From contig CAZAXD010000001.1 of NCBI GenBank assembly GCA_964489015.1, positions 168,532-232,531 of the forward strand: a stretch of 64,000 bases of DNA, written 5' to 3'. The notes below the pieces were generated by a model. The model searched no databases. It was not told the DNA's origin and worked only from the letters and a program-made list of their open reading frames with translations. The position numbers and the translations under genes are program-made. This document shows positions 1,082 through 22,034 of the stretch, piece after piece. Each line of letters starts with the position of its first letter. Positions within the stretch are counted from its first letter, which is position 1. The DNA is from an uncultured Sphingobacterium sp. Lineage in GTDB: Bacteria > Bacteroidota > Bacteroidia > SpSt-205.

Positions 1082-1082
1082 T

Positions 1083-1472: not shown

Positions 1473-1475
1473 CCT

Positions 1476-2039: not shown

Positions 2040-2045
2040 TCGGTT

Positions 2046-2405: not shown

Positions 2406-2407
2406 GT

Positions 2408-3562: not shown

Positions 3563-4899
3563 GAGAGCTCATCCAGACCCTGCGGAATATCTTTAGTATT
3601 CCTGAGCTGCGGGAGCGTATCCTGTATACGCTATTCCTCTTAGCCATTTACCGCTTTGCTTCTTTCGTCATCTTACCAGGGATTGATTCGCAGGTGTTGT
3701 CGGAGGAATTTGCCCGTACGCAAGGCATGGGAATCCTAGGGCTACTGAATGCCTTTGTGGGAGGGGCTTTTTCGCGAGGCGCCATCCTAGCCCTAGGTAT
3801 CATGCCCTATATTTCCGCTTCGATTATTATCCAGCTCTTGACTGCAGCCCTGCCTAGCCTGCAAAAACTTCAAAAGGAAGGAGAGAGCGGCACGCGCAAG
3901 CTCAATCAGTATACTAAATTTTTGACCGTTGCTGTCGTGCTTGTGCAGGGCTCTGGCTATCTGGTGAACCTCCGAACCCAGTATGCTCCGGCTATCACGA
4001 TGTCAACGGGGCTTTTTACCGTTACAGCGCTGACGGCCATGCTGGCAGGCACCATGTTTTTAGTGTGGGTAGCGGACAAGATCACCGACAAAGGCATCGG
4101 CAATGGTAGCTCGATGATCATTGCGATAGGGATCGTGGCGGAACTGCCGCCGGCGCTCATGAACGAGCTTACGTCAAATGCGCCCATGGTCTTTTATATC
4201 GAGCTCCTAGCCCTTATGGTGGTGATTATGCTGGTGGTGCTGCTTCAGCAGGCCTCCCGGAAAATCCCCGTTCATTATGCCCGTCAGATGATGGGAGGGC
4301 GTTATCCTACGGGTATAGGGGGTGTGGCTTCGACGAGTCATATCCCGCTCAAGCTTATGTCCGCGGGTGTGATGCCGATCATCTTTGCCCAGTCTTTGAT
4401 GTTTCTGCCGGCGACGATCGCGCAGTATTTCCCTGAGAGTGATTTCTGGCTGGCGACAGGCAGCTGGTTTGCCGATTATACCAGCATTCCATACAATATC
4501 TTGTTTATTGGGCTGATCGTGCTCTTTACCTATTTTTACACGGCTATTGTGATCAATCCTCGTGATATTGCTGAGCAGCTCAAGCGCGGCGGGGGCTACA
4601 TTCCTGGCATCAAACCAGGAAAGCCCACGGCAGATTACATAGACACGGTTTTGACGCGGATTACATTACCCGGTTCGTTAGCGCTGGCCGGTATTGCGAT
4701 TTTGCCGGCCCTAGTGCGCTCGCTAGGGGTGTCTAATCAGTTCGCACAATTTTTTGGAGGTACTACCATTTTGATTATGATAGGGGTTGTCCTGGATACG
4801 CTTCAGCAGATCGAGAGCTTTATGCTCATGCGTCACTACGAGGGGCTTATGAAGACAGGGCGTATCCGAGGGCGTGCGGCGATTAGAGGGGCTGTATGA
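3559..4899 (+). CDS. secY: preprotein translocase subunit SecY
   Basis: 446 aa, 10-TM protein with the SecY signature. Position after rplO is conserved. Confidence 0.95.
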   Translation: MRELIQTLRNIFSIPELRERILYTLFLLAIYRFASFVILPGIDSQVLSEEFARTQGMGILGLLNAFVGGAFSRGAILALGIMPYISASIIIQLLTAALPSLQKLQKEGESGTRKLNQYTKFLTVAVVLVQGSGYLVNLRTQYAPAITMSTGLFTVTALTAMLAGTMFLVWVADKITDKGIGNGSSMIIAIGIVAELPPALMNELTSNAPMVFYIELLALMVVIMLVVLLQQASRKIPVHYARQMMGGRYPTGIGGVASTSHIPLKLMSAGVMPIIFAQSLMFLPATIAQYFPESDFWLATGSWFADYTSIPYNILFIGLIVLFTYFYTAIVINPRDIAEQLKRGGGYIPGIKPGKPTADYIDTVLTRITLPGSLALAGIAILPALVRSLGVSNQFAQFFGGTTILIMIGVVLDTLQQIESFMLMRHYEGLMKTGRIRGRAAIRGAV

Positions 4900-5711
4900 G
4901 GGTAGAAGAGTGGCCTATTTACGGTGAGACGGAGGTGGCTAAGATCGCAGCGGCCGCAGATATTCTCAGCCGATTATTTGGTCACCTGGCTCCCCATGTG
5001 CGTCCGGGGGTATCAACCCTCGAGCTAGATCAGATGGCAGAAGCGTTTATTCGACGAGAGGGCGCATACCCCGCCTTCAAGGGCTATCATCCACCTTTTG
5101 GCCATGAGCCCTATCCCTATACCCTTTGCATCTCTATCGACCATGAAGTCGTACATGGTTTGCCGGCTCCGGATAAGGTCCTTAGGCCGGGACAGATCGT
5201 TTCGATTGATTGTGGGGTAAACCTAGAAGGATTTCATGCGGATATGGCGTACACGTTTGGGGTGGGTATGATTAGTCCCTTGGCTACCCGTCTGCTAGCA
5301 GTGACCCAAGAGGCGCTATGGCGTGGGATTGCAGAGGCGAAAGCAGGGGCTTATGTGGGGGATATTGGTTACACCATCTCGACATTTGTAAAAAACTATA
5401 CCTTTGCCGTGGCTGAAAGCTTAACTGGACACGGTTTGGGACGCGCTATGCATATGCCACCGGACATCCCTAATGTAGGCAAGCCTCGTCGTGGTCCTCG
5501 CCTAGTGGAAGGGCTGGTCATCGCTATTGAACCCATGGTGCATACCGGCAAAAAGTACATTCGCCAGGCGGCGGATGGTTGGACTATCGAGACAGAGGAC
5601 CGCTCGCTGGCCGCGCATTTTGAGCATACCCTTGTCGTCCGAAAAGACAAGCCTCAGGTGCTCACCTCCTTCGAACCCATCCAAAGAGCCCTCGCGTATG
5701 TCGAAAGATGA
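4896..5711 (+). CDS. map: type I methionine aminopeptidase
   Basis: 271 aa, MetAP pita-bread fold motifs. Lies between secY and infA as in many bacteria. Confidence 0.9.
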
Positions 5712-5916
5712 TTTTATTCGGATGGACGGCAAGATCACAGAAGCGTTGCCCAACGCTATGTTTCGCGTGGAGCTGGAGAATGGTCATCAGGTCCTAGCGC
5801 ACTTATCGGGTAAAATGCGCAAGTACTTCATCCGTATCTTTCCAGGTGATCGGGTGACCGTGGAAATCTCGCCTTATGACCTCAGTAAAGGCCGTATCAT
5901 TTATCGCTATAAATAG
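5698..5916 (+). CDS. infA: translation initiation factor IF-1
   Basis: ATG at 5698 gives [72 protein letters not shown] (72 aa, IF-1 S1 domain). The longer ORF in the track is an upstream extension overlapping map. Confidence 0.92.
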
Positions 5917-5925
5917 AATCAGACT

Positions 5926-6042
5926 ATGAAGGTAAAGACTTCTGTACGTAAGCGGACGCCAGACTGCATCGTCGTTAGACGAAAAGGGCGCGTCTATATT
6001 ATCAGCAAGAAAAACCCGAAACACAAACAAAGACAAGGTTAG
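5926..6042 (+). CDS. rpmJ: 50S ribosomal protein L36
   Basis: 38-aa [41 protein letters not shown], absent from the ORF track because it is under 60 aa. C-terminus ...[13 protein letters not shown] fits the L36 consensus, and it sits between infA and rpsM. Confidence 0.88.
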
Positions 6043-6043
6043 C

Positions 6044-6424
6044 ATGGCACGGGTAGCAGGTGTGGATTTACCACGGAATAAGCCGGGCTTTATTGCGCTG
6101 CGCTATATTTATGGTATAGGGCGTAGTAATGCTTGGGAGGTGCTGGCAGAAGCGGGGATCGACCCGCGTAAGCGCGTTTCGGCTTGGACCGAAGACGAAG
6201 TCGCTCGGTTGCGAACTGTCCTCGAGCAGAAATATACCGTAGAAGGGCAGCTGAGGACGGAAGTGCAAATGAATATTAGGCGCCTCATCGAGATTGGGTG
6301 TTATCGGGGCCTTCGTCACAAATCGGGGCTTCCAGTCCGAGGCCAAAGGACTCGTACAAACGCCCGAACCCGAAAAGGGCGTCGAAAAACTGTCGCTGGT
6401 AAGAAAAAAGCTCCACGTAAATAA
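6044..6424 (+). CDS. rpsM: 30S ribosomal protein S13
   Basis: 126 aa beginning [13 protein letters not shown]..., S13. Confidence 0.95.
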
Positions 6425-6427
6425 CCT

Positions 6428-6820
6428 ATGATGGCCGTTTCTAAAGAAACCACTCGTCGTAAAAAGATTCGTGTCGCACCGGAAGGGCGAGTGTACGTTC
6501 AAGCTACGTTTAATAATATCATTATTACGTTTACCGATACAGCGGGGAATGTGATCGCCTGGAGCTCGGCAGGAAAAGTCGGCTTTCGAGGCGCCAAGAA
6601 AAATACGCCTTATGCGGGGCAGGTGGCAGCCCAAGATGCGGCTAAAGTCGCTTACGAAGCAGGGCTGCGCACGGTAGACGCTTTCCTAAAAGGTACGGGG
6701 GCTGGCCGCGAGGCCGCATTACGGGCGATCGACAGCCTTGGCATTCAAGTTCGGGCGATCCAAGACATTACGCCGATTCCGCACAACGGCTGCCGCCCGC
6801 CTAAACCTCGAAGAGTCTAA
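6428..6820 (+). CDS. rpsK: 30S ribosomal protein S11
   Basis: 130 aa containing ..[24 protein letters not shown].., S11. Confidence 0.95.
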
Positions 6821-6824
6821 GCCT

Positions 6825-7427
6825 ATGGCACGCTATACAGGACCTCGACAAAAGATTGCACGGCGGTATCGAGAACCGCTCTTTGGTCCCTCTCGGGCCC
6901 TCAGTCGCAAGAATTATCCACCCGGTCAGCATGGCCGTTTTAAGCGCGGTAAGCTAAGTGAATACGGGATTCAACTGATGGAAAAGCAGAAAGCTAAGTT
7001 TATTTACGGTTTGCTCGAGCGGCAGTTTCGGCGGTTCTTTGCCATCGCTTCTCGCATGAAGGGCAATACGGGTGAAAACCTTTTGCAGCTGCTGGAGCGA
7101 CGCCTTGACAATGTGGTGTATCGCCTGGGCTTTGCTCGCACGCGTCCGATGGCTCGTCAGCTTGTTTCCCACGGCCATATTCTTGTGAATGGTCGCCCCG
7201 TCACCATCCCGTCTTTCCTAGTCAAGCCCGGCACGGTGATAACCCTGGCACCCAAAGCCCGTGAGGTGGAGGCCTTGCGTAAGGTCTGGGAAGATAGTCG
7301 TAGCCAACACGCTTGGCTTGAAGTACGCAAGCCAGACTTTAGCGGGATATTTCTCTATGTGCCCGCTCGGGCTGAAATACCAGAAAATATTCAAGAACGT
7401 CTCATCGTCGAGCTATACTCGAAATAA
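6825..7427 (+). CDS. rpsD: 30S ribosomal protein S4
   Basis: ATG at 6825 gives [15 protein letters not shown]... (S4 N-terminus). The upstream extension in the ORF track overlaps rpsK. Confidence 0.93.
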
Positions 7428-7430
7428 CCT

Positions 7431-8435
7431 ATGGCGAAGCTCTTATCCGCACCGATTGTTTTACCGCAAGGCGTCGAAGTCGTTTCTGAGACGCCCTACT
7501 TGAGTAGGTATGTGTTTCGACCCTTGGAGGCTGGGTATGGTGCTACGATTGGCAATGCCCTGAGGCGGGTACTTCTCTCCTCGATAGAAGGGTATGCCAT
7601 TGTATCCCTCAAAGTGCCTGGTGTCCTGCATGAGTTTAGTACGATCCCCGGTGTCATTGAGGATGTGGTGGATATCGTGCTCAATCTCAAGCAGGTAGCG
7701 CTGCGGCCGCGTCACGAAAAAGCAGCTACGCGCCTCTTTCTGGAAATAAAAGGGCTTTCTGTCTTTACAGCGGGTGACATCGCTAATCAAGCGCCTGACT
7801 ATGAAGTAGCTAACCCCGATCTCGTGATCATGCACCTGGATCCAGATGCCCGTGTCCAGATGGAGCTCCAAGTGGCGCGCGGCCGGGGATATCACTTGGC
7901 AGAGGAGAATAAACAAATCCTCCGCGATACACTCGAGCCCCATGAGATTGTGCTTGATACGAGCTTTTCGCCGGTGCTGCGGGTGGTACCTCGGGTAGAG
8001 ACCATGCTCTATGAAGGGCGTGCCGACTACGAACAGCTCTTTTTGGAGATCGAAACCAAGGGGACGATTGCGCCCAGAAAAGCCTTGGCGGAAGCCGTGG
8101 ATATCTTACTAGCCCACTTCAACCGGTTTGGAGACAGGGGGTCCCGTGCGGGTTTGGCTTCCGAGCCTCACATCCAGTCGGTGGCCGATTTTTTGGCGTT
8201 GTCCCTCGAAGACTCGCCTTTGGCGAGCGTCCTGGATGCGGCGACTACTCGTGCCTTCTATAGTAAGGGGATTCGGCGCGTGATAGATCTCGTGGCCCTT
8301 TCCCCCAAGGAGATAGAGAAGTTTTATCCTCGTATCGGCAAAAAGACCCTGGAAGATATCCAGCGCATCATCGGGGATCGCAGCCTCAAGCTCGGTATGG
8401 ATGTATCTAATTATCGAAACCTCATTCCTTCGTAG
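7431..8435 (+). CDS. rpoA: DNA-directed RNA polymerase subunit alpha
   Basis: 334 aa with RpoA N-terminal dimerisation and C-terminal domain motifs. Confidence 0.95.
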   Translation: MAKLLSAPIVLPQGVEVVSETPYLSRYVFRPLEAGYGATIGNALRRVLLSSIEGYAIVSLKVPGVLHEFSTIPGVIEDVVDIVLNLKQVALRPRHEKAATRLFLEIKGLSVFTAGDIANQAPDYEVANPDLVIMHLDPDARVQMELQVARGRGYHLAEENKQILRDTLEPHEIVLDTSFSPVLRVVPRVETMLYEGRADYEQLFLEIETKGTIAPRKALAEAVDILLAHFNRFGDRGSRAGLASEPHIQSVADFLALSLEDSPLASVLDAATTRAFYSKGIRRVIDLVALSPKEIEKFYPRIGKKTLEDIQRIIGDRSLKLGMDVSNYRNLIPS

Positions 8436-8437
8436 TT

Positions 8438-8860
8438 ATGCGGCACGGTGACAAAGTCAATAACTTAGGGCGCAAAAAAGCACATCGCAAAGCCCTCCTA
8501 CGTAATTTAGCCCTCTCTTTGATTCAGCACAAGCGACTGATTACGACGGTGGCGAAGGCGAAGGCCTTACGTCGGTTCATAGAACCGCTGCTGACCCGGG
8601 CTAAGCAAGACACCCTCACGAATAGGCGGGTTCTCTTCTCGTATCTGCACCATAAGCAGGCCATCAAGGAGCTCTATAGCACGATAGGGCCGGCTATTTT
8701 GGATCGGCCAGGTGGGTATACCCGTGTGCTCAAGCTAGGCTTTCGACAAGGGGATGGCGCAGAAATGGCTTTGATAGAATTGGTAGACTTCAATCCTTTC
8801 TTGGGCCAGGAATCGCTTTCGCGTACCAAGAGCTCAGCGCGGCGCCGCCGGAATGCCTAA
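8438..8860 (+). CDS. rplQ: 50S ribosomal protein L17
   Basis: 140 aa beginning MRHGDKVNNLGRKKAHRKALLRNLA..., L17. Confidence 0.95.
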   Translation: MRHGDKVNNLGRKKAHRKALLRNLALSLIQHKRLITTVAKAKALRRFIEPLLTRAKQDTLTNRRVLFSYLHHKQAIKELYSTIGPAILDRPGGYTRVLKLGFRQGDGAEMALIELVDFNPFLGQESLSRTKSSARRRRNA

Positions 8861-8944: not shown

Positions 8945-9586
8945 TTGCTGTTTTTGCAACTTACTACTGCTAGCTGGTACACCTATCGCTTGCTTTACGG
9001 TTTTCCTTCCGGCTTAGGGTTGCAGGGCATTCTCCACCACCGGCAGATAGCGGGAAAGCCGGCTCTGTCCTTTCTGGCAGGTGCGCTGGAATACCACTGG
9101 AGCCACTTCTATCTACACCTAAGTTCGCGTCTAGAGCAGGGTTTTGTGCGTGGCCGACCGAATGGCTGGCAAAGTCGAGTATTTGGGATGGTTTTCTGGC
9201 GTCAATCCTCTGCCCAGATTCTAACGGAACTGCGCCTGAGGTATGAGTATTTTTGGGATTGGGATGGTTTTTTCTCGGCGCATCAGCGCCTGCGCCCTGC
9301 TTTATTTATCAGCCATACTACCTGGCGTAGGATTCACCTGCAGTGTCAGATAGAGCCGATGTACTGGCTTAGCCATCGATGTTATGCCCCGTGGACAGTC
9401 AATCAGTGGCGGTTTTTTGGGATGGGGACCCTGCGGGGTGCCCGCTGGACGCTGCGGGCCGGTCCGGCTCTTTTTTATCAGGTGCAGCCGCGTGAAACGC
9501 AGCTTGTCCTAGTCCTAGAACTCCAATCCCGTATAAAGAAGCCCACCGCCAAAAGTATTTCCCCACCAGATCAAACTCTACATTGA
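8945..9586 (+). CDS. hypothetical Trp/Tyr-rich protein, possibly an outer-membrane beta-barrel-like remnant
   Basis: 213-aa ORF beginning with TTG immediately after the tRNA end. Rich in W, Y, F and R (YEYFWDWDGFF..). No ATG start and no signal peptide at this start. Its 3' end overlaps the convergent ribE by ~190 nt. Could be a degraded gene or spurious. Confidence 0.25.
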   Translation: MLFLQLTTASWYTYRLLYGFPSGLGLQGILHHRQIAGKPALSFLAGALEYHWSHFYLHLSSRLEQGFVRGRPNGWQSRVFGMVFWRQSSAQILTELRLRYEYFWDWDGFFSAHQRLRPALFISHTTWRRIHLQCQIEPMYWLSHRCYAPWTVNQWRFFGMGTLRGARWTLRAGPALFYQVQPRETQLVLVLELQSRIKKPTAKSISPPDQTLH

Positions 9587-10118
9587 CTCGCTCGCCCTGT
9601 CTGAGCTTGTGAAAGGTGGTCTGATGATACGTGTGGGGGATGATCGCCACCCGAAATGCACTTTCTGTGAGGGTGGCTACGGTCAGACTTACGCCATTGA
9701 GAGCGATCGACCCTTTCTCGACTACCAGATAAGCCCAGGCGGCCGGCAGCTCGAAAGTGAAATAGTAACTATCCTCACCTGCCTTTTCTATCTGAAGGAG
9801 GGTTAGAGTCGTGTCGACATGGCCTTGCACGAGGTGACCCTCCCAGCGACCGCCTAGGGAGAGGCTGCGCTCGAGATTAACAAAGTCGTTGAGTTCGAGC
9901 TGGCCTAAGGTGGTGCGACTTAGCGTTTCTCGGACTACTTCGACGCAGTAAAAGCGGTGCTTGATAGCGACGACGGTGAGACAAATGCCATTGTGCGCGA
10001 TACTCTGGCCGATCGATAGCTCTTGAATAAACGGTGCCTGGATCCAGAAGCGACGTCCGTTCGCAGTCGTTTCAATAGCTTGAACCGATCCTAGCGCCTC
10101 AATGATACCCGTAAACAT
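9399..10118 (-). CDS. ribE: riboflavin synthase alpha subunit with low-complexity C-terminal tail
   Basis: Begins MFTGIIEALGSVQAIE.. with two lumazine-binding repeats (riboflavin synthase). About 40 aa of Pro/Ala/Ser-rich C-terminal extension. Confidence 0.85.
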   Translation of the reverse strand: MFTGIIEALGSVQAIETTANGRRFWIQAPFIQELSIGQSIAHNGICLTVVAIKHRFYCVEVVRETLSRTTLGQLELNDFVNLERSLSLGGRWEGHLVQGHVDTTLTLLQIEKAGEDSYYFTFELPAAWAYLVVEKGSIALNGVSLTVATLTESAFRVAIIPHTYHQTTFHKLRQGERVNVEFDLVGKYFWRWASLYGIGVLGLGQAAFHAAAPDKKEPDRPAASSGHPAGSPSQKTATD

Positions 10119-10120
10119 AC

Positions 10121-12793
10121 TTAGCGTAGCAAAGTTAGGCTACCGGCCTTACGAAAAGAGCGGCCGTCTCGTGTATCCAGCACCGCTTCGATGACGTAGA
10201 AGTAAGTGCCCTCTGGGGCCGGCTGGCCCCGATACGTGCCATCCCACAAGCGGTTGATGTCTCGGCTTTCGGCGATGAGCCCCCCCCACCGATCATAAAT
10301 CCAGCAGCGAATCTCCCGAATGTTTCGGTAAACGAAGGGGCGGAAGATGTCGTTAATGCCGTCGTTATTAGGGGTAAACGTATTAGGCACCATGAGGATA
10401 GGGCAGTTGTCGAAGCAGAGGGGGGAACTGAGACTGCTTTCGTTGCCGGCAGTATCTCGAGCTGAGATAGCGAAGCACACCTGATGAGAACCTTCCCCTT
10501 GCCAGGTATAGGTGCGTTGGGGCTCTCGGACGTAGGTTAGCAGCTGAAACGGGCCTTCCGGGCGTGGGCTGAGGTAGATCCCATAAGCGCCGACATCCCC
10601 GCCGCATGTGCTGTCGGGGCGAGACCATTCTAGCGCGACCCGATACGTTTCGCAGTCGTCTCGGGTATCAATAGCGACGGGGAGACAGGGAGGAATCGTA
10701 TCAAAGGGTTCAGCACAGGCCTTATTAGAAGCATTCCAGAGGGGATCGCGAATGCCTGTTACTTGATAGGTTCCCCGGCTTAGCACGTAGTAACAATAGG
10801 TCTGGTTATTGGTGAGATTCTGGTCGAGGTAAGAAAAGGAGGCCAAGCCGGTGTGTCCCCCCGCTAAGGTCGCAATGAGTTGAAAATTACCTGGCTGGGG
10901 AGGGTCTGCCCGGTAGATAAAAAACGTGTCGTTGATCCATGGTACATTTTGCGTCCAGGTCAGCAAGATAGAACGGTCGCGAGGAGAGAGCGTAAGCAGG
11001 ATACTCGTCGTAGTGTTACTAGACGCGATTTCGCGGCCTTGGCCATCTAGGAGCCGTACCCGATAGCGGTAAGGGGTCGTCGTAGTAGCGGGCGCATTGG
11101 GGTCTAGATAGCTGTCACCTGTGAGGCCACTCGCAATCGGCACAAAGTTGGTCCCATTTAGGCCAGCAGCTCTTTCTAAAGTGTATGTGTAAGGTGGGGG
11201 GAAGAACGTACTATCTAGCACTAGCGGGGCATTCCAGGAGACCCATACTGCCCCGGCGACGGGGTCTGTGGTGTGGATGCTGTCCTGAGTCATTAGCGGG
11301 AAATTGATCGGCAAGTCGATACAGGCTTCATTGGTGGGGCAACTTTCGATGTCATTATAAAGGGCGCGCAAGCGGTAGCAGTAGCGCGGGCTAAACTCTA
11401 GGTCTGCATCGGTGTAACTGGTCTGGCTACCGGGCAGCGTAGCGATAAGGGAGTAGCCTGACAAGGACCCACGGCAACAGAGCGTATCCGGATAAGGCTG
11501 GGGGGCAGGCGAACGGTAGACGCGGTACGAGTCGGGTGGGCAGGGCGGTGCGATCCAGCTTAGGTTCATTTGGCGGGGCCCTGGGGTGACCGTGAGATTG
11601 GTAGGTGGCGGACCGATGACATACAAGCGCGTGACTTTATGCGCTGCCAAAGTAGGTCGGTTGGTAAGGTTGTCATGGGCATACCAGTCTATCTGGTAGG
11701 GGAGGCGCCGGATGTGCGCACAGGTCGTTTGCCAGGAAAAGGTGACCCCCGTCCTCGGTGGGTTGTAGCCTATGAGGGGGAATGTATTAGGGCTAAGGGT
11801 CGCTGGATTGGTTGGCACTTGAAAGGGGCCGTTAAATCCCTGGCCCCCATTATTGAGGTAAAAGTAGACACTGTCGCGGGTGTCAGGGTCGTAGGCGATA
11901 GCCTGAAACTGGAGGAGGCGGCCGGCGGTAATGCAGGTTTCGGCGGGGGCCTCGATGATAGGAGGATTATTTTGACAGGGCGCTACGAAGATCGCCATGT
12001 CGCGAATGACCTGACCGATCTTACGGCCGCGTCGGTACTCTTCAATGAGAATAGCGATGTTGTAGACGCCAATTTGCTGCGGGGTATTCCAGGTGACGAG
12101 CCCCGTTTGCCGGTCTATGGTAAAGGCGCCGCCAAAAGCGCTAGGATACTGGTAATTTCCGACGGGTATGGGGTTTTGCATGTTACCCGGATCGTACTGC
12201 TGACAAGGGATTAGCGAGTACACCAGGGAGTCCCCGTCTGGGTCAAAAGCGCCGGGGTTGTGCGTCCAGAGGCGATTAGTACAAGCATCATCGATCGGGT
12301 CATTCAAAAGGAGCGGCGAGTTATTGAGGCCAAGAAAGGGATTATTGGATAGGCGGGTCTCGATGTAAAAGGAGGTTGCTCCGGAGTTGGTCATATTACG
12401 CACGTAGTCTACGCGCGCAAAGTCGCTATAGCGTAACTCGTACTCGCCGGGGCCCGGTAGATTGATAGTAGTAATGTAGAAGTTCTTTTTAACGCGGGGC
12501 CGTAGCCAAATACCCAAACGGGCCGGGGCTCGGCAGCTCCCGCCACTGGGTCCATTGCTACGAGGAATATCGCGAATAACCTCAATGAGCACACGGCCAC
12601 TACTGGTGATGCTCCATATTTCCAGATCAGCCGTACAGCGATCTACACCGGCAGCGGTCGAGTCCGTGTAGGTGGTGATGGTGACTCGATACTGGTTGGG
12701 CCCCAGATACTCGTAGGTAATTTGCCCAGCTAGGTTGTGTGAAGCGTGGACAAGGCCAACCAAGCCGAGTAGTAGCGGGTGCTTTAAGCGCAT
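10121..12793 (-). CDS. large secreted adhesin-like protein with T9SS type B C-terminal sorting domain (gliding-motility-associated CTD)
   Basis: 890 aa with N-terminal signal peptide and Ig-like repeat motif (AFDPDGDSLVYSL). C-terminus ..CPILMVPNTFTPNNDGINDIFRP...WDGTYRGQPAPEGTYFYVIEA matches the type B (CHU_C / TIGR04131) CTD. Confidence 0.8.
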   Translation of the reverse strand: MRLKHPLLLGLVGLVHASHNLAGQITYEYLGPNQYRVTITTYTDSTAAGVDRCTADLEIWSITSSGRVLIEVIRDIPRSNGPSGGSCRAPARLGIWLRPRVKKNFYITTINLPGPGEYELRYSDFARVDYVRNMTNSGATSFYIETRLSNNPFLGLNNSPLLLNDPIDDACTNRLWTHNPGAFDPDGDSLVYSLIPCQQYDPGNMQNPIPVGNYQYPSAFGGAFTIDRQTGLVTWNTPQQIGVYNIAILIEEYRRGRKIGQVIRDMAIFVAPCQNNPPIIEAPAETCITAGRLLQFQAIAYDPDTRDSVYFYLNNGGQGFNGPFQVPTNPATLSPNTFPLIGYNPPRTGVTFSWQTTCAHIRRLPYQIDWYAHDNLTNRPTLAAHKVTRLYVIGPPPTNLTVTPGPRQMNLSWIAPPCPPDSYRVYRSPAPQPYPDTLCCRGSLSGYSLIATLPGSQTSYTDADLEFSPRYCYRLRALYNDIESCPTNEACIDLPINFPLMTQDSIHTTDPVAGAVWVSWNAPLVLDSTFFPPPYTYTLERAAGLNGTNFVPIASGLTGDSYLDPNAPATTTTPYRYRVRLLDGQGREIASSNTTTSILLTLSPRDRSILLTWTQNVPWINDTFFIYRADPPQPGNFQLIATLAGGHTGLASFSYLDQNLTNNQTYCYYVLSRGTYQVTGIRDPLWNASNKACAEPFDTIPPCLPVAIDTRDDCETYRVALEWSRPDSTCGGDVGAYGIYLSPRPEGPFQLLTYVREPQRTYTWQGEGSHQVCFAISARDTAGNESSLSSPLCFDNCPILMVPNTFTPNNDGINDIFRPFVYRNIREIRCWIYDRWGGLIAESRDINRLWDGTYRGQPAPEGTYFYVIEAVLDTRDGRSFRKAGSLTLLR

Positions 12794-12832
12794 AAGGCAG
12801 TTAAAATCCTCTGCAAAATAAACAATTTTGCG

Positions 12833-13777
12833 GTGGTGCGTATAGATGAGTTACTTCGGGCGGCGCAAGCCACCGTTATTGGTCAGCGGGAAGCTTTGGA
12901 GTCTTTGTGGATAGCCCTGATTAGTGGGGGACATGTCCTACTCGAAGGGGTGCCGGGCGTGGCTAAGACCCTGATGGCCAGTACAGTGGCCCATTTGTCT
13001 GGGCTTAGCTTCCAACGGGTCCAGTTTACGCCGGATATGTTGCCTTCCGACCTGCTGGGGGGGCTCGTTTATGAGGGACCAGGGCAATTTTCGGTGCGGA
13101 AGGGGCCTATCTTTACTCAGGTGCTCCTGGCGGATGAGGTAAACCGAGCTCCCGCCAAAGTGCAGAGCGCTCTCCTAGAGAGCATGCAGGAGGGGCAGGT
13201 CACCATCGGAGACACAACCTACCTCCTGCCTAAGCCCTTTTGGGTGTTGGCGACCCAAAATCCGATTGAGCAAGAAGGCACCTACGCGCTACCAGAAGCT
13301 CAGATAGATCGGTTTTTATTTCGGGTGATAGTGGAGTACCCTTCGCAAGCGGAGGAACAAGAGATTCTGCATCGGTGGGCATGGGCTTTGTATCCGCCTG
13401 TGCCGGCACCTATTCTGTCTCCCGAAGCGGTTTTACAGTTACAGGCAGCCCTTCAAGAAATAGAGGTATCTCCGGCCATGGAAGCTTACATGGTCCGGCT
13501 CGTGCGGGCCACGCGTGAGACCAATCAAGGCAAGCTACGGGATTGGAAGGGCTATGTGGCCTATGGCGCTTCACCACGGGCAGGACTCGCCTTACATCGG
13601 GCGGCGCGAGCGCGGGCGCTCCTCCACGGCCGCCATCAAGTCACCCCTGAGGACATCAAAGCCGTGGCCATGCCCGCCCTCAATCACCGTATCATCCTAG
13701 CCTACACGGCGCTAGCGGAGGGGCGAACGGCTCGAGCCTTTATAGAGGACCTCCTGCAAACGGTGCCGTATCAGTGA
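12833..13777 (+). CDS. MoxR-family AAA+ ATPase
   Basis: 314 aa. Walker A GVPGVAKT, Walker B LLADEVNRA and ..ATQNP.. motifs match MoxR. GTG start. Confidence 0.85.
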   Translation: MVRIDELLRAAQATVIGQREALESLWIALISGGHVLLEGVPGVAKTLMASTVAHLSGLSFQRVQFTPDMLPSDLLGGLVYEGPGQFSVRKGPIFTQVLLADEVNRAPAKVQSALLESMQEGQVTIGDTTYLLPKPFWVLATQNPIEQEGTYALPEAQIDRFLFRVIVEYPSQAEEQEILHRWAWALYPPVPAPILSPEAVLQLQAALQEIEVSPAMEAYMVRLVRATRETNQGKLRDWKGYVAYGASPRAGLALHRAARARALLHGRHQVTPEDIKAVAMPALNHRIILAYTALAEGRTARAFIEDLLQTVPYQ

Positions 13778-15006
13778 AGCTAGCTCCCGTCGACTTTTGG
13801 CTCTTTGCTCTTCCTCTCCTTCTGATGGGTATCGGTCTATTCAATCTATACTCGATAGAAAACGCACCCGCCGTATGGAATTGGGGGAATGCTTTTTATA
13901 AGCAACTAGTCTGGGCTTTTTTGGCGGCTTTGGGCATGTTACTTTTTAGCTTTTTAGAGGGAAATCTGTGGCGCTACATGGCGCCTCTGGCTTACATAGG
14001 AGGTGTAGGACTCATGACGTTGACCGTTTTTATCGGGCGGGAAGTAAATGGGGCCAAAGCTTGGTTGGAGCTAGGGGGCTTACGGCTACAGCCTTCGGAG
14101 TTTATGAAGGTGCTAGCGGCGCTTATGCTAGCCCGTGTCGCCAGTCCACCGGATTTTAAGTGGTCGCGGGGGCGGGATAGGCTGAGTGTCTTGGCGATAG
14201 TCGGTCTGCCGGCGTTACTGGCCCTTTTACAGCGGGATACAGGCACGGCGCTGACCTATGGGGCGCTAGTGATACCCCTCTATCGAATCGGGTTGTCGGG
14301 CTGGTTTATTGTGCTACCTCTGGTTGCTGGCCTCATGGCCTTGGGCAGCTTGAAGTACCCCTGGCCAGTATGGGCGGGGGTAGGGCTTGTCGTCGGCTTA
14401 CTATGGCATCTCTTCTGGCGCAAGGGGTGGTGGCCAGTGCTTCTTATCACGCTTGCGGCTGGGCTCTGGGCCTGGGCTGTGCCTAAGCTCTATCAGCACG
14501 TGCTAGCTCCCCATCAGCGCCAGCGTATAGAGGTCCTGTTTGATCCTTATCGTGATCCGCGTGGTGCCGGGTGGAATGTCATTCAGGCGCGCATCGCCAT
14601 AGAAGCAGGCGGCTTATGGGGACGCGGTTATGGTCAAGGCCTACAAAGTAAACTCGATTTCATTCCCCAGCGTCATACAGACTTCGCTTTCTGCAGTTTG
14701 GCTGAGGAGTGGGGATGGGCCGGTAGTACAGCGTACATCTTACTGTACATGGGCTTTCTGTGGTACTTATTGTGGATTTCTGAGCGAACGGGTAATCGCT
14801 TTGCCCTAGTATATGGTTATAGTCTAGCAGGCTTTCTGGGCTTACATTTAGTCATCAATGTAGGCATGATTCTGGGGCTCTTGCCTGTCATTGGGATTCC
14901 TCTGACATTTTTAAGCTACGGCGGCTCGTCGTGGGTGGCGATGGCGGCGGGCATAGGAATCCTTCAGCGGTGGTACCGTGAACGCACGCTTCGGTTATTT
15001 AGCTAG
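13774..15006 (+). CDS. SEDS-family peptidoglycan glycosyltransferase (FtsW/RodA-like)
   Basis: 410 aa, ~10 TM. Conserved SEDS motifs (..QRHTDFAFCSLAEEWGWAG.. and ..GIPLTFLSYGGSS..). GTG start overlaps the MoxR stop (GTGA). Confidence 0.8.
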   Translation: MKLAPVDFWLFALPLLLMGIGLFNLYSIENAPAVWNWGNAFYKQLVWAFLAALGMLLFSFLEGNLWRYMAPLAYIGGVGLMTLTVFIGREVNGAKAWLELGGLRLQPSEFMKVLAALMLARVASPPDFKWSRGRDRLSVLAIVGLPALLALLQRDTGTALTYGALVIPLYRIGLSGWFIVLPLVAGLMALGSLKYPWPVWAGVGLVVGLLWHLFWRKGWWPVLLITLAAGLWAWAVPKLYQHVLAPHQRQRIEVLFDPYRDPRGAGWNVIQARIAIEAGGLWGRGYGQGLQSKLDFIPQRHTDFAFCSLAEEWGWAGSTAYILLYMGFLWYLLWISERTGNRFALVYGYSLAGFLGLHLVINVGMILGLLPVIGIPLTFLSYGGSSWVAMAAGIGILQRWYRERTLRLFS

Positions 15007-15555
15007 GAGCACTTGCAAAACGGGCTCTTCATCGGCCTCGAGGCGAAGCGAGGGTTCTTCTTGCAGACACTTCTGTAAAAGGGCGCTCGCTTCCTCGTTT
15101 TTACCCAAGCGGGCTAAGAAGAGTGCTTGATAAAAACGAACTTGCGGCGACTGCTGGGGCAGTTCACTAGCTTTTTGCAAGGCAGCTTCGGCCTCTTCAT
15201 TCTGACCGAGATTGAGGGCCCAGAACGCTTTATGGACCCACCAACGGGGATTTTCGGGGTCTTTTTCTAAGATTTGCAGGAGGGTATGGTAAGCCTCCCG
15301 AATGCGACCCTGCCTAAGTAGCTCTTCGTAGTATGCCACGAGGCCAGCCAAGTAATCAGGCGCAATACGTCGGCACTCCACGAGAGCCTGCCAGGCTTCC
15401 TCTGTGTTGAGCCGACGTAATAGCTGGTATTTAGCAAGCCAGAGGGCTGGCTCATTAGGATATAGAGCTAGCCCTACATTCAGAGGCGTAAGGGCTTCCG
15501 TCAGTAGACCAGCTTCGGCCAGATGCCGACTTTGCGTTAAGTAGTTGGTGTACAT
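14995..15555 (-). CDS. tetratricopeptide-repeat protein
   Basis: TPR-like helical repeats. Start moved to the internal Met (MYTNYLTQ..) because the longer ORF overlaps the downstream oxidase gene. Confidence 0.55.
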   Translation of the reverse strand: MYTNYLTQSRHLAEAGLLTEALTPLNVGLALYPNEPALWLAKYQLLRRLNTEEAWQALVECRRIAPDYLAGLVAYYEELLRQGRIREAYHTLLQILEKDPENPRWWVHKAFWALNLGQNEEAEAALQKASELPQQSPQVRFYQALFLARLGKNEEASALLQKCLQEEPSLRLEADEEPVLQVLLAK

Positions 15556-16957: not shown

Positions 16958-18418
16958 ATGGCTAATGCGTATCCTACATCGGAGCTAAGGTCTGATGGGC
17001 CGGTGCTTTGGCTCGTATCGCCAAGTGCTCAGACTGCTTATGAAGGGGCCGTGACCCGCTACGGGCTTGACCCGCACGCCTTCAAGCCGGAGCGGCGCTT
17101 ACGCTTTTATGGAGATGGGCGATTGGAGGGGCTTATTCTGCCTTTGCCTGACGACGAGATCGAAACGCTCCGACGCGGGGTTTATTATGCGCTCCGAAAG
17201 GCCGAGGAAGTGGGCTGGACCCGAGTCCAGCTGCGTTGGGTCGAGCCGCCCGCCCACCCCGATCGGCTTTATGCCTATCAGACCTTAGGCGAGTTTGCCC
17301 GGATGAGCCTCTATCGCTTTGTGAAGTATGTCTTGGAGCCTCCGCTCTCGGTAGAGGAGATAGCGATATGGCGTCCAGACGAGCAGGCAGAGCAGGCCAT
17401 TCAAAAGGGGCTCTTAGTAGGGGCACTAGTCAATAGCACTCGGGACTGGGTGAATGAGCCCCCTAACGTGCTAACGGCCGTAGAGCTAGCACACCGCATC
17501 GCCGTCCTGGGTCAGACTTATGGCTTTTCGGTAGAGATATGGGATAAAAGTCGCATTCAGGCCGAAAAGATGGGAGGCCTCTTGGCTGTCAATCGCGGGA
17601 GCCTGCAGCCGCCGACTTTCACCATCGCTGAATACAAACCGGCCCAACCCCGCAACAAGAAGCCTCTCGTGCTCGTAGGAAAAGGGCTCATTTTTGATAC
17701 AGGAGGCCTTAGTCTCAAGCCCACCCCGGACAGCATGGATTACATGAAGGTTGACATGGCTGGCGGGGCTACGGTGGCCCATGCTTTGGCTCTGGTTGCG
17801 GCGCTTCGATTGCCATACCACGTGATAGCCCTTGTTCCGGCGACGGACAACCGTCCTGGTGAAGATGCCTACACGCCTAATGACATCATTCATTTTGCGG
17901 ATGGTACGCCGGTTGAGATTCGGAATACCGATGCAGAAGGCCGCCTCATTTTGGCCGATGCCTTGATTCATGCTCGACGGTATGATCCGGGATTAGTCGT
18001 GGATTTTGCGACGCTCACGGGGTCTGCGGCGATGGCGGTGGGGCCTTATGCCTCGGTACTTTTTACCAACGCCGGTCTGGCTATTCGGGATGCGCTACTC
18101 AACAGTGGGTTTCGGACCCATGAGCGCCTCGTCGAATTCCCGCTCTGGGACGACTACGGCTATCTCATCAAAAGTGATATTGCGGCGATTAAGAACTCCG
18201 CTAGCCGCGAAGCCGGTGCCATCACAGCGGCTAAGTTCTTGGAATATTTTGTACGCTATCCTTGGGCGCACTTTGATATTGCAGGCACTGCTTTTTACAA
18301 TAAACCCCTGCCACCCGATCGGGGTTTTCCCCGCCACTATCAAGTTAAGCACGCTACGGGGGTTGGGGTGCGCTTGCTCTTAGATTTTATCGAACGGCAT
18401 GGAGACCGAATCGGATAA
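16958..18418 (+). CDS. pepA: leucyl aminopeptidase (peptidase M17)
   Basis: M17 signature NTDAEGRLILADAL and metal-ligand motifs. 486 aa. Confidence 0.85.
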   Translation: MANAYPTSELRSDGPVLWLVSPSAQTAYEGAVTRYGLDPHAFKPERRLRFYGDGRLEGLILPLPDDEIETLRRGVYYALRKAEEVGWTRVQLRWVEPPAHPDRLYAYQTLGEFARMSLYRFVKYVLEPPLSVEEIAIWRPDEQAEQAIQKGLLVGALVNSTRDWVNEPPNVLTAVELAHRIAVLGQTYGFSVEIWDKSRIQAEKMGGLLAVNRGSLQPPTFTIAEYKPAQPRNKKPLVLVGKGLIFDTGGLSLKPTPDSMDYMKVDMAGGATVAHALALVAALRLPYHVIALVPATDNRPGEDAYTPNDIIHFADGTPVEIRNTDAEGRLILADALIHARRYDPGLVVDFATLTGSAAMAVGPYASVLFTNAGLAIRDALLNSGFRTHERLVEFPLWDDYGYLIKSDIAAIKNSASREAGAITAAKFLEYFVRYPWAHFDIAGTAFYNKPLPPDRGFPRHYQVKHATGVGVRLLLDFIERHGDRIG

Positions 18419-19424
18419 ACTGCCGCTAGTAGGCTTTACGATTGGGGAGCCTGGCGGAATCGGTCCTCAGCTCTTACTACAATTTTTCCAGCGGGAAGGC
18501 TGGCAGGAGGCTTTCATTCCGGTGGTTTACGCCCCTCGTCGGGTGATCGAGCAGTGGCGGGCTTTTTTAGGGCTCAACCAGTTTCGGTATCACCTGCTTC
18601 GTTCAATAGACCAGCCGCTTAGACCGGGCGATTTTTACCTCATAGACCTTGGGCCTCCCCCAGGGGAAGTCGTGCTACGCGCTTCGTCTCCTGTGAATGG
18701 CCACGTGGCTCGTGAGTCGCTGCGGCGAGCGGTCCATGATGCGCGCCAAGGCTTCCTTGACGTAGTAGTCACCCTCCCCACCGACAAAGCCACCTTGTAT
18801 GATGTCGAGACCTTCCCCTATCGAGGTCACACGGAGTATTTTCGAAGTCTGCCAGACGCTCAGCCTCTCATGATGATGGTGGGCCCCAGGCTAAAGGTGG
18901 CTGTGGCTACCGAGCATATCCCACTTAGTGCCGTTCCGACTGCCCTCAGTGAAGGGCTTATCGAGACAGCCCTGCGCCAGCTTAGGCAAACTTTACAGCG
19001 AGATTTTGCCATAGCAACTCCTCGCTTAGCGATTTTGGGTCTCAATCCACATGCGGGAGACCAGGGGCTCATTGGTACCGAAGAGGAGACCCTACTACGT
19101 CCTCTCCTGGCGCGTTTAGCGCAGGAGATGCTGGTCGCAGGGCCTTTTGCGGCGGATGGCTTCTTTGGCGCCGAAGCTTATCAGCGTTTTGATGCGGTTT
19201 TGGCGCTGTATCATGATCAAGGGCTGATTCCCTTCAAGCTTTTGGAGGGGTGGTTAGGCTATCAGTATACAGCGGGCTTACCCTTTGTGCGGACGGCGCC
19301 GGATCACGGTACGGCTTATGACAAGGTGGGGGCGGACGATGCGGCTATCGAGAGCCTCTCGGCGGCTATCTGGGAAGGGCTCATAATTGCGCAGCGCCGG
19401 TCCGGGTATCTCACCTCCGTATGA
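18399..19424 (+). CDS. pdxA: 4-hydroxythreonine-4-phosphate dehydrogenase
   Basis: PdxA motifs (GDPGGIGP.., ..LNPHAGD.., ..YHDQGLIPFK..). 341 aa. Confidence 0.8.
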   Translation: METESDKLPLVGFTIGEPGGIGPQLLLQFFQREGWQEAFIPVVYAPRRVIEQWRAFLGLNQFRYHLLRSIDQPLRPGDFYLIDLGPPPGEVVLRASSPVNGHVARESLRRAVHDARQGFLDVVVTLPTDKATLYDVETFPYRGHTEYFRSLPDAQPLMMMVGPRLKVAVATEHIPLSAVPTALSEGLIETALRQLRQTLQRDFAIATPRLAILGLNPHAGDQGLIGTEEETLLRPLLARLAQEMLVAGPFAADGFFGAEAYQRFDAVLALYHDQGLIPFKLLEGWLGYQYTAGLPFVRTAPDHGTAYDKVGADDAAIESLSAAIWEGLIIAQRRSGYLTSV

Positions 19425-20263
19425 AAGGCCTAGCCTGGCTCCTGCCAGCGGATCTCGCCACCCATGCAGATCTGGCAGCGGAGCCCATGTTTTATCTAGC
19501 CCAGGCGCTCAGTGCTCATGTGCCGATCTGGACTATCAGTTGGCATCCGCTTCCGGTGGCCCCAGGTTACCACCTTCGTTTTTGGGATGCTCAAGGTCGC
19601 GGGATAGTCTTTTGGGGCCAATGGCCGCTCTCCAAACTTCGCACCGAGATCGAGACTTACTGGCAGATGGAGGGGTTTGTGCCTCAAGTCGTCCTAAGCA
19701 CTGCCTGGGGGGGTAGGTTAGTTCATCGATGGCAGCAGCGCTTTGGTGCTCGGGTGATAGAGTGGGGCCGGGACTTAGCTTTCCAACTGCCAGGTACGGG
19801 CCTTGGCGAAAGGTCGCCAGCTTCGCGGCAGGGCAGTATCGCTATTCCCGCGGAGCCCTTCACTATAAACGCTAGTCTGCAGCTAGCAGCCGACCTGCTA
19901 GCTGCTCAGCAGAACGTGCTCTTAGTTGGGCACGCGCTTAGCGCTACGCCTTTTCGCAATTTCGCCCATGCCCATCTTCACCGGGTAAAGCTCGCTTTGG
20001 GCTTGAGCTGGTCGGAAATAGAGTCGGTTTTGGACCAGGCCAAAGTGGTGGCCTTAGCAAGTCCCTCACCACTTTTGGCTCGGCTGAGTTGGGGCCGTGT
20101 CGTGGCCTATCCGGAGCCGATAGATCTGCCCGGGGCCTTCCATTACGAGAGCGTCGCGGCGCTCCTTGAGATGCTCAAAGGATCGGAGCTTCCTAGCCCC
20201 GTTTACCTTGCTCCATCTGAGGCTGCCGAAGCCGCTTGGGCCTTACTTAGCGCTTACTTTTAG
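19421..20263 (+). CDS. hypothetical protein, weak glycosyltransferase family 9-like C-terminal region
   Basis: 280 aa, translationally coupled to pdxA (ATGA). C-terminal region resembles the nucleotide-sugar binding half of heptosyltransferase-like GT9 enzymes, but the match is degenerate. Confidence 0.35.
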   Translation: MKGLAWLLPADLATHADLAAEPMFYLAQALSAHVPIWTISWHPLPVAPGYHLRFWDAQGRGIVFWGQWPLSKLRTEIETYWQMEGFVPQVVLSTAWGGRLVHRWQQRFGARVIEWGRDLAFQLPGTGLGERSPASRQGSIAIPAEPFTINASLQLAADLLAAQQNVLLVGHALSATPFRNFAHAHLHRVKLALGLSWSEIESVLDQAKVVALASPSPLLARLSWGRVVAYPEPIDLPGAFHYESVAALLEMLKGSELPSPVYLAPSEAAEAAWALLSAYF

Positions 20264-20315
20264 ACGGGATCGCGCTGGCCGTGTCTCATGAAGAAGTGCC
20301 TGACCTCCTGACCGG

Positions 20316-22034
20316 TCAGAGTTGTACCCCAAATTCAAGCTGATCGTGTCGAAAGATAGCTCGGCGCTTAAGCAGAGGATAGGTGCTAGACTTCATCCAG
20401 TCATAGGTGGCCTTGAGCTTTTCCCAGAGAGCCAGATGCTCGGTCGGTATACCTAGCTTTAGATGGGCTTTTTCGGCGATCTGGGCTATGAGTGTATAAG
20501 AGGGGAGGCAATCGGGGATGAAAGCAGGATGGCGCCAGCGGTCCACCGGCTGGCCAGCCGCATCGAGTCGACTTTTAGATAGGTAAAACCAGTCCGTGGG
20601 TTTCATTTTTTGCCATTGTCGGGCGGGTTGGACCGTCTGAGCTAGACCATCTTCGTTGATAAAGGTGGCAAAGCTCTCGAGATGCGTCGCGGCGGGGAGC
20701 TGATACCAGAGCCGCTCCTGATATAGACTGTTTTGGTAAGTGTGGGCCACGATGCGCAAGGAAGAGGGGAGATGAGGCAGCAGCGCTGCTAAGGCTGTAT
20801 CATCTTCGACCCAGTATAGGATGGCATATTGGCTAGCCAGGCCAGCCAGCGCCTTGAGGTCGATGGGCTGAAAGCCGAGGGCCTGGGCTCCCTTGGCGTT
20901 GGGAGTCCGATCATCGCGCCGAAGGAGCTGGTCTCCCCAGCCCGGCTGAATATGCGGTACATAATGCAGTGGTGCTTCTGGGGACAAAGCATCCCGCAGC
21001 AGCTTGAGCGCATAAAGCGTTTCTACACTAGCATACGCTGACCCTACAAAAAGTATCCGGCCAGCTTCTGCTACGAGCGCTTTGGCAAGGTCTGCTAAGC
21101 CCTGAGTCCACTCTATCGGCTGACCATGCTGCCATAGCCCCGAGGTCCGGTTTTCGTTGTACTTGCGATAATCCAGCCGCCCTTCGTCACAGAGCCAGTA
21201 CTGATTGACCTGGAGATTTTTACGGGGGGTTAGCCGCATGACTAAGTTATCCCGGACCCAGGCCTGAGTATTGCAACCTTTAGCACAGCCGGTGCAGATC
21301 GAAGGCGTATAGTTCATTTCCCATACACGGGCCTTGAAGCGGTGATCGGCACTGGTCAGGGCACCCACTGGGCATATATCGACGGTATTAAGAGAGTACG
21401 GATCGTCAAAGGCCTGGCCAGGCGCCGTGGCGGGATAATTCTGGTTACCGCGTTGAATGATGGTGAGTTGGCGCGTCTGGGAGACCTCTTCGGTAAAGCG
21501 CACGCAGCGGGTACAGTTGATACAGCGCTCGGCATCGAGCACGACGCGCGGACCAAGTGGGATGCGTTTGGGCTTGTGTACTTTTTCGAGTTCGAAACGA
21601 GACCCTTCCGGGCCATACTTATAAGTCCAAATCTGAAGTGGACACTCGCCCGCTTGATCGCAAATGGGACAATCCAGCGGGTGATTGATGAGGATAAACT
21701 CCAGCACCCCCTGCTGCGTCTTTTGGATAAGGGGCGAGGAGCGGTGGGTGCGAACGTGGAGATCAGGCGTTAGGTCCGTGGTGCAAGAAGGGGTGGGTTT
21801 GGGGCCCCATTGAATGCGTAAGCTGCCATCTGCTTCTCGAAGGTATTCACCGGTGGAGCGGTCTTTCATGGGCAGCCCCGTTTCTACTAGACACATGCGG
21901 CAGTTGGCCGGAATGCTGAGAGCAGGGTGGTAGCAGAAGTAGGGTATATCTATCCCCTGTTCTAAGCAAAACTGAAGAAGCTTCATGGGACGCTCGTAGG
22001 TATAAGCCTGCCCATCAATGTAGACAGTTGGCAT
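20316..22034 (-). CDS. nuoG: NuoG-like iron-sulfur protein (NADH-quinone oxidoreductase 75-kDa subunit homolog) with truncated molybdopterin-type domain
   Basis: 2Fe-2S ferredoxin Cys pattern (C..C..C near the N-terminus). NADH-G 4Fe-4S motif HPLDCPICDQAGEC. 4Fe-4S motif CINCTRCVRF. Mo-pterin-domain 4Fe-4S motif CTGCAKGC. Start placed at MPTVYIDGQ. Confidence 0.7.
   Translation of the reverse strand: MPTVYIDGQAYTYERPMKLLQFCLEQGIDIPYFCYHPALSIPANCRMCLVETGLPMKDRSTGEYLREADGSLRIQWGPKPTPSCTTDLTPDLHVRTHRSSPLIQKTQQGVLEFILINHPLDCPICDQAGECPLQIWTYKYGPEGSRFELEKVHKPKRIPLGPRVVLDAERCINCTRCVRFTEEVSQTRQLTIIQRGNQNYPATAPGQAFDDPYSLNTVDICPVGALTSADHRFKARVWEMNYTPSICTGCAKGCNTQAWVRDNLVMRLTPRKNLQVNQYWLCDEGRLDYRKYNENRTSGLWQHGQPIEWTQGLADLAKALVAEAGRILFVGSAYASVETLYALKLLRDALSPEAPLHYVPHIQPGWGDQLLRRDDRTPNAKGAQALGFQPIDLKALAGLASQYAILYWVEDDTALAALLPHLPSSLRIVAHTYQNSLYQERLWYQLPAATHLESFATFINEDGLAQTVQPARQWQKMKPTDWFYLSKSRLDAAGQPVDRWRHPAFIPDCLPSYTLIAQIAEKAHLKLGIPTEHLALWEKLKATYDWMKSSTYPLLKRRAIFRHDQLEFGVQL

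Follow-up and report, generated by a model that had tools for sequence, protein, structure and literature searches.

We analysed a 64,000-nucleotide (64-kb) stretch of DNA from an uncultured Sphingobacterium sp., referred to here as the window, in which a moxR gene is followed directly by a rodA gene. Specifically, moxR (12833-13777, plus strand) is an intact open reading frame (ORF) with a GTG start that specifies a soluble, 314-residue AAA+ ATPase of the MRP-type MoxR subfamily, and rodA (13774-15006, plus strand) is an intact ORF, also with a GTG start, that specifies a 410-residue RodA-type SEDS peptidoglycan glycosyltransferase, which is a polytopic membrane protein. Comparison with related loci confirmed that the moxR-rodA pairing is real, conserved, and specific to one uncultured Bacteroidia lineage, which we refer to as the clade.

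The moxR product matched two Pfam families, AAA_3 (PF07726; E value of 3e-59, 199.1 bits against a cut-off of 27) and, after this core, AAA_lid_2 (PF17863; 5e-23, 81.1 bits against a cut-off of 22.7). Residues 4-311 aligned with the MoxR structure of Cytophaga hutchinsonii in the Protein Data Bank (PDB entry 2R44; E value of 7.7e-91), and the N terminus of the window protein was about 15 residues shorter than those of 2R44 and the outgroup MoxR proteins. We located the Walker A motif (residues 39-46, GVPGVAKT), the Walker B motif (residues 98-105, LLADEVNR), the sensor-1 region (residues 140-144, ATQNP), the DRF motif of the Arg-finger region (residues 159-161), and the GASPRA motif of the sensor-2 region (residues 245-250). 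The ATPase motifs were kept in 10 MoxR sequences from the clade, in which the sole change was a T-to-S substitution in the last Walker A residue of one locus (GVPGLAKS in L007). A Kyte-Doolittle analysis of MoxR detected no hydrophobic segments. The dN/dS values for moxR were about 0.04-0.09, which indicated strong purifying selection, although these values are rough because dS was near saturation.

In the case of RodA, the Pfam family FTSW_RODA_SPOVE (PF01098) was matched with an E value of 9.8e-77 (258.8 bits against a cut-off of 26.4), and the NCBIfam model RodA_shape (NF037961) gave 301.7 bits, above its cut-off of 150. The scores obtained with the FtsW model (TIGR02614; 233.1 against a cut-off of 337.5) and the SpoVE model (171.7 against 448.8) were both below the cut-off. 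The best PDB matches were Escherichia coli MrdB (8TJ3_B; 1e-48) and Thermus thermophilus RodA (6BAR; 9.3e-48), whereas FtsW chains reached only 1e-29. Residues ~11-404 of the window protein aligned with 8TJ3_B and 6BAR, its length was ordinary, and neither the length nor the two alignments revealed a clade-specific cytoplasmic extension. At least seven strong hydrophobic segments were identified by Kyte-Doolittle analysis. As with moxR, the dN/dS values for rodA (about 0.06-0.07) indicated strong purifying selection and are rough because dS was near saturation. The catalytic Asp and the Glu108/Lys111 pair of T. thermophilus RodA are essential. The equivalent residues were present in the window protein: D303 (in RHTDF) is the catalytic Asp and aligned to D255 of 6BAR, and E109 and K112 (in QPSEFMK) aligned to E108 and K111. 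All three residues were invariant among 10 clade RodA sequences. A 554-residue "long RodA" from ENA (P0041) was considered as a possible fusion protein and rejected; it contained an exact internal duplication of ~140 residues and was probably an assembly artefact.

To place the pairing in its lineage, we used a set of 13 clade loci (L001-L012 and L091) that represented about 10 distinct sequence types. These loci came from the genomic context of homologues across the identity range, from four species representatives in genome collections, and from one metagenome contig (L091). The four representatives were the metagenome-assembled genomes (MAGs) KatS3mg025 (contig BPGV01000001.1, 2.27 Mb), SKYG92, and DT_Bin_56 together with RSWP8, a genome under the label "Sphingobacterium sp." The window and all 13 of the related loci contained the same five-gene block: ribE and a gene for a type IX secretion system (T9SS) protein with a CHU_C sorting domain on one strand, moxR and rodA diverging from them, and a tetratricopeptide repeat (TPR) gene converging on rodA. 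The TPR gene was found in every clade locus, and ribE was found in every clade locus that extended that far. Identity to the window proteins across the clade was 60-87% for the T9SS protein, 57-90% for MoxR, 45-81% for RodA, and 37-85% for the TPR protein, which was the least conserved member of the block. Outside the block the flanks varied; five or more contexts occurred on the left and four or more on the right.

The clade was also well delimited at the protein level. Among the best 120 proteins, the RodA homologues of 46-100% identity made up a tight set of 40 clusters, below which identity dropped to 43% or less; among the matches listed, the MoxR homologues formed a group at 57-100% identity, followed by proteins from other phyla at 58% or less. 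Horizontal transfer of moxR-rodA was considered and rejected on the basis of the flat GC content (0.53-0.57 across the locus), which speaks against a recently imported island, and of the presence of the block throughout the lineage.

Outside the clade, rodA and moxR had different and highly regular contexts. A genome scan yielded 76 non-clade RodA loci, of which 74 were assessable (the other two had no upstream DNA). PBP2 (penicillin-binding protein 2) was encoded directly upstream of RodA in all 74 of the assessable loci, usually after mreB-mreC-mreD, and MoxR was not found within 10 kb of RodA in any of the 76. A metagenome scan yielded 79 non-clade MoxR loci, 58 of which were assessable in that they had at least 900 bp of downstream sequence. 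DUF58 was the next same-strand ORF after MoxR in 52 of these 58 loci, and 25 of the 52 DUF58 ORFs also matched VWA_2; RodA was near MoxR in none of the 79. MoxR genes are known to co-occur with nearby genes for vWA (von Willebrand factor type A) cofactors (PMC3893208). A pairing seen in 13 of 13 related loci, but in none of the 76 RodA loci and none of the 79 MoxR loci from outside the clade, is far beyond chance. The sister RodA group (P0043, 42% identity) kept the ordinary PBP2-RodA order. The closest non-clade MoxR among the matches listed (P0188, 58% identity; positions 8001-10142 of L089, on a 2.58-Mb contig) had no DUF58 follower, and its gene was located between fmt and the HPr kinase gene. 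The L089 locus raised the possibility that "orphan" MRP-type MoxR genes form a wider subgroup.

The customary partners were also missing from the DNA surrounding the pair. We scanned the large window ORFs other than those of the ribosomal-protein cluster at the 5' end (bases 1-8860) with Pfam, and several of them with NCBIfam as well, and these scans detected no PBP_dimer or Transpeptidase, MreB, MreC, MreD, DUF58, or vWA matches. A tblastn search of the whole window with MreB, MreC, MreD, and PBP2 probes from the comparison loci yielded no match. Similarly, there was no tblastn or Pfam match to PBP2 in 12 clade loci, and no DUF58 or vWA match within ~10 kb in any clade locus. These findings bore out much of an original prediction that had been made from the sequence alone. 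It had described a MoxR AAA+ ATPase and a RodA/FtsW-like SEDS protein, identities with which the Pfam, NCBIfam, and PDB matches agree; a GTGA overlap of the moxR stop and the rodA GTG start, which is present at 13774; a convergent TPR gene as the next gene, which lies at 14995-15555 on the minus strand; and no adjacent vWA or PBP gene, none of which we detected anywhere in the 64 kb. It had taken as normal that DUF58/vWA genes come after MoxR and that SEDS proteins pair with a class B PBP, and these premises matched the 52 of 58 and 74 of 74 loci noted above. Furthermore, the adjacency was shared by all 13 related loci and was thus not restricted to this genome, and the 64-kb window contained no PBP or vWA gene just outside the pair.

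The original prediction had also called the SEDS gene an orphan and had suggested an alternative elongation or division polymerase. The first description was apt for gene order, but the protein itself is an ordinary RodA ortholog with intact catalytic residues. As for the second, the SEDS protein could be a specialised RodA/FtsW-like polymerase if a canonical mrdA-rodA pair were present elsewhere in the same genomes. The score obtained with the older RodA equivalog model TIGR02210 (307.6) was slightly below the cut-off (336.7), which is in line with this idea, and the source genome was read over 64 kb only. On the other hand, the NF037961 score was double the cut-off, and the E values of the matches to RodA structures were better than those to FtsW structures by 19 orders of magnitude. 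We found one RodA locus per clade genome in the best 80 genome matches, even though these matches recovered Bacteroidota RodAs down to ~31% identity, and there was no second match from clade contigs among the best 120 proteins. In addition, a dN/dS of ~0.06 is typical of a housekeeping gene. The single RodA locus per clade genome among the best matches argued for a housekeeping enzyme rather than an extra paralogue. Thus, the window RodA is an ordinary RodA ortholog that looks like the housekeeping enzyme and is probably the sole RodA of the clade genomes; an alternative polymerase is unlikely, and we regard the version with a second, canonical mrdA-rodA pair as highly improbable.

A near relative of the clade (L172; GC content of 0.547), whose CHU_C and RibE proteins are 45% and 52% identical to those of the window, was informative with regard to PBP2. 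Positions 17575-20802 (minus strand) of this locus contain mreC-mreD-mrdA, followed 61 nt after mrdA by a convergent rlmN gene, and there is no rodA at that site. An mrdA gene without rodA is what would be expected if a single rodA had moved, and it is also what would be expected if the clade RodA works with a distal PBP2. The L172 arrangement suggests that the PBP2 of the clade is simply encoded elsewhere. We also observed that mreC-mreD-mrdA of L172 is only ~6 kb from its T9SS-ribE pair, and that the uncoupling of rodA from mrdA may reach beyond the moxR-rodA clade.

The junction between the two genes was examined in the window and across the clade. The window DNA reads TAT CAG TGA at the end of moxR, and the rodA GTG begins at 13774, which creates a 4-nt overlap in which the moxR TGA lies within the GTG-A of rodA (GTGA, 13774-13777, plus strand). 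This overlap is a proposed termination-reinitiation site. In the 10 clade sequence types, the junction took the forms GTGA or ATGA (-4), TGATG (-1), TGA-t-ATG (+1), and TAA-tc-ATG (+2), which are three kinds of sequence solution to one tight spacing. Matches to sigma-70-like promoters and intrinsic terminators around moxR-rodA were not above the shuffled expectation. An exact Bacteroidota -7 box (TAnnTTTG) was not found on the plus strand between 12300 and 15100, and hence there is none within moxR. The divergent intergenic spacer between the T9SS gene and moxR (12794-12832) is 39 nt and is presumed to hold or abut the promoters of both genes. In this spacer, CAATTTTG (12823-12830) matches the -7 box at seven of eight positions and is a candidate promoter. 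It ends 2 nt 5' of moxR, which starts with GTG and has another GTG codon next. Use of this candidate promoter would leave the moxR-rodA mRNA with almost no leader. Termination-reinitiation would suit Bacteroidota, which make little use of Shine-Dalgarno pairing. Judged by the conserved tight junction and by the lack of an intervening promoter or terminator signal, moxR and rodA look like a coupled operon pair that is probably co-transcribed and translated by reinitiation.

We slightly favored the idea that moxR-rodA is the product of a lineage-specific operon re-assortment, with co-transcription and translational coupling as likely features of the new operon. In the ancestor of the lineage, rodA would have lost its near-universal place after mrdA (PBP2) and come to lie immediately behind moxR, and moxR itself would have been parted from the DUF58/vWA gene that usually follows it. 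One inversion between the moxR-DUF58 and mrdA-rodA junctions would be enough for such an operon tail swap, and the rearrangement would have put rodA behind moxR, beside the older T9SS-ribE pair. A single moxR-rodA mRNA would start in or near the 39-nt divergent spacer, and ribosomes ending moxR would reinitiate at the overlapping rodA start, which would tie RodA synthesis to MoxR synthesis. RodA would still polymerise lipid II together with a distally encoded PBP2, and MoxR would still be a general or separately partnered chaperone whose vWA partner is distal or absent. The pairing may persist mainly through compactness: given the 39-nt divergent spacer, the moxR/rodA overlap, and the convergent rodA/TPR overlap, any breakpoint would damage a gene or a promoter. 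Mutual dependence of the MoxR and RodA proteins would not be required. Other observations likewise limit a functional reading: ribE and the T9SS gene are frozen in the block as well, P0188 has no DUF58 follower either, L172 keeps PBP2 with no rodA downstream, and the sister RodA group has the ordinary gene order.

Several points argue against a rearrangement that was simply preserved. Partners were lost on both sides, and the junction stayed within 6 nt while RodA identity fell to 45% and the flanks were reshuffled several times. Such retention exceeds usual neutral synteny and fits selection for co-expression or a functional link. Moreover, the distal PBP2 for RodA and the distal partner for MoxR are both things that we infer. 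A functional link is also less far-fetched because MRP-type MoxR proteins have been tied to the cell envelope and morphology and to a peptidoglycan hydrolase (PMC3893208, PMC4810496).

One form of functional link, in which MoxR is a dedicated AAA+ chaperone or remodeller of RodA or the elongasome, seemed conceivable but on balance unlikely. MoxR would aid the insertion, folding, or assembly of RodA, which is predicted to have 10 transmembrane segments, or would disassemble RodA-PBP2; through translational coupling, the two proteins would be made in a set ratio and new RodA chains would emerge close to MoxR. This idea is consistent with the departure of both genes from near-universal partners (74 of 74 and 52 of 58 loci) to pair only with each other, with a junction kept at -4 to +2 nt clade-wide by three different sequence solutions, and with strong purifying selection on two proteins whose ATPase and glycosyltransferase motifs are intact; RL3499 (PMC3893208) and MoxR1-RipA (PMC4810496) provide precedents. 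However, the vWA/MIDAS adaptor that known MoxR systems use (PMC3893208) was absent from the block and from the 64-kb window, and RodA carried no clade-specific cytoplasmic extension. The pairing was confined to one lineage, an unrelated gene (ribE) was equally frozen in the block, and a literature text search found no paper linking MoxR to RodA. A more specific proposal, that MoxR was recruited as a dedicated RodA assembly or remodelling factor that operates without a DUF58/vWA adaptor and is held in a fixed ratio to RodA via termination-reinitiation, is more doubtful still.

The other members of the block were characterised as well. The outermost gene, ribE (9399-10118, minus strand), encodes riboflavin synthase (Pfam Lum_binding, 1.1e-48). 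The gene divergent from moxR (10121-12793, minus strand) encodes an 890-residue T9SS type-B sorting-domain protein (CHU_C, 3.5e-18; TIGR04131, 5.1e-17). Beyond the C-terminal sorting domain, just a weak fn3 match was found in this protein, and no other domain was recognised. At the opposite end of the block, the last gene (14995-15555, minus strand) encodes the convergent, soluble, 186-residue TPR protein (TPR_19 at 6.2e-13, plus other matches), and its 3' end overlaps the 3' end of rodA by 12 nt. The longest TPR ORF reaches 15672; we set the start at an ATG that agrees with the homologues, which are 186-191 residues long and align from residue ~38-40 of the long ORF. No hydrophobic segments were found in the TPR protein. 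An amine-oxidase-like flavoprotein gene is located beyond the TPR gene.

These neighbours suggested another possibility, namely, that MoxR serves the T9SS protein or the TPR protein and that rodA is a passenger on the moxR promoter. The start of the T9SS gene is 39 nt away from moxR, and the identity of the T9SS protein across the clade (60-87%) is above that of RodA; the TPR gene accompanies moxR in every clade locus, and TPR proteins are components of Bat-type MoxR operons. Nevertheless, the T9SS gene is found elsewhere without moxR. Full-length orthologs (39-50% identity over ~99% of the length) were present in many Bacteroidia MAGs outside the clade. The order T9SS ortholog then ribE was seen in outgroups L172 (9001-12428) and L173 (9001-12444), where the divergent neighbour of the T9SS ortholog was an rplM-rpsI-rpsB operon, not moxR, and none of the T9SS orthologs in L171-L173 had a MoxR neighbour. 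Because T9SS-ribE is the older pair and is found without MoxR, part of the block conservation is plain synteny. In addition, no vWA domain was detectable in the T9SS protein at the thresholds used, and the TPR gene lies on the strand opposite moxR, with identities (down to 37%) that are the lowest in the block. We therefore judged it quite improbable that either neighbour is the client of MoxR. The T9SS protein (~890-970 residues) is of some interest in its own right; its conservation and its synteny with ribE are unusually strong for T9SS cargo.

The remainder of the window contained several genes with possible links to the cell envelope or to AAA+ proteins. MltG/YceG (TIGR00247, 127 bits) is encoded at 23359-24988 (minus strand), followed by a 208-residue protein with a partial, weak GT51 match (44 bits against a cut-off of 183). 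The latter is ~9 kb from rodA and may be a degenerate or divergent MtgA. A cluster at 54874-57688 (minus strand) encodes two FHA proteins (183 and 388 residues) and a PP2C phosphatase (357 residues), and an LD-carboxypeptidase gene (53928-54896, plus strand) abuts it. This FHA-FHA-PP2C cluster is reminiscent of how the actinobacterial cell-wall operon fhaA-fhaB-pstP-rodA-pbpA-pknAB begins, but it is not followed by a gene for a SEDS protein, a PBP, or a kinase. The window has a second AAA+-like protein, which is unclassified: a 500-residue protein (50738-52240, minus strand) had only weak AAA_5, Mg-chelatase, and BchD-like N-terminal matches (E values of ~1e-6 to 1e-9), and no vWA domain was detected in it. 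An Rfam scan of the window identified three tRNAs and nothing else.

RodA and MoxR are among the most context-faithful of bacterial genes, and a lineage in which both have been re-paired is a natural experiment. If a functional link is true, MRP-type MoxR proteins, whose clients are mostly unknown, would gain a concrete membrane-protein client, and an ATP-dependent factor would be added to SEDS and elongasome biology. With a dedicated RodA factor, a SEDS enzyme or the elongasome would for the first time have an AAA+ chaperone assigned to it. If the pairing reflects only a rearrangement, it would be a clean example of operon tail-swapping and a caution against inferring function from conserved adjacency within one compact lineage. 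The pairing offers a cheap, sharp test of a SEDS client for MRP-type MoxR.

The locus can be compared with several known systems. The elongasome operon mreB-mreC-mreD-mrdA(PBP2)-rodA, which encodes the RodA-PBP2 synthase (6PL5 and 8TJ3), contains the same type of RodA with equivalent catalytic residues; in contrast, the window rodA is preceded by moxR, and there is no mrdA or mreBCD upstream of it or within the 64 kb. The rodA gene of Bacillus subtilis is a stand-alone gene that is adjacent to neither pbpA nor pbpH. Such stand-alone rodA genes, as well as L172, indicate that RodA can work with a class B PBP encoded elsewhere, but they lack the translational coupling to an AAA+ ATPase gene that is likely for the window rodA. 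Relative to the MoxR(MRP)-DUF58-vWA operons, the window ATPase is a standard MRP type with all ATPase motifs, but the gene after moxR is rodA and not DUF58. The Bat (Bacteroides aerotolerance) operon of Bacteroidota and spirochaetes has the order moxR-DUF58-batA/batB(vWA)-batC-batD-batE on one strand. Only moxR of this operon is present in the window, and the sole TPR gene of the moxR-rodA block encodes a small, soluble protein and is on the opposite strand.

The closest functional parallels are two envelope-associated systems of the same MRP subfamily as the window MoxR. The Rhizobium leguminosarum protein RL3499 (RL3499-RL3502) is an MRP-type MoxR with an important part in cell morphology and membrane integrity (PMC3893208), and RipA, a peptidoglycan hydrolase, is a binding partner and chaperone client of Mycobacterium tuberculosis MoxR1 (PMC4810496). 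MoxR acts there on a hydrolase that is periplasmic or secreted, or on an unknown client, and these systems do have DUF58/vWA genes; in the window, the link is one of gene order only. Our literature text search found no SEDS polymerase implicated with envelope-linked MoxR proteins. Viewed against all of these systems, moxR-rodA is not a new kind of system but a novel operon arrangement of two families that are themselves ordinary and well known.

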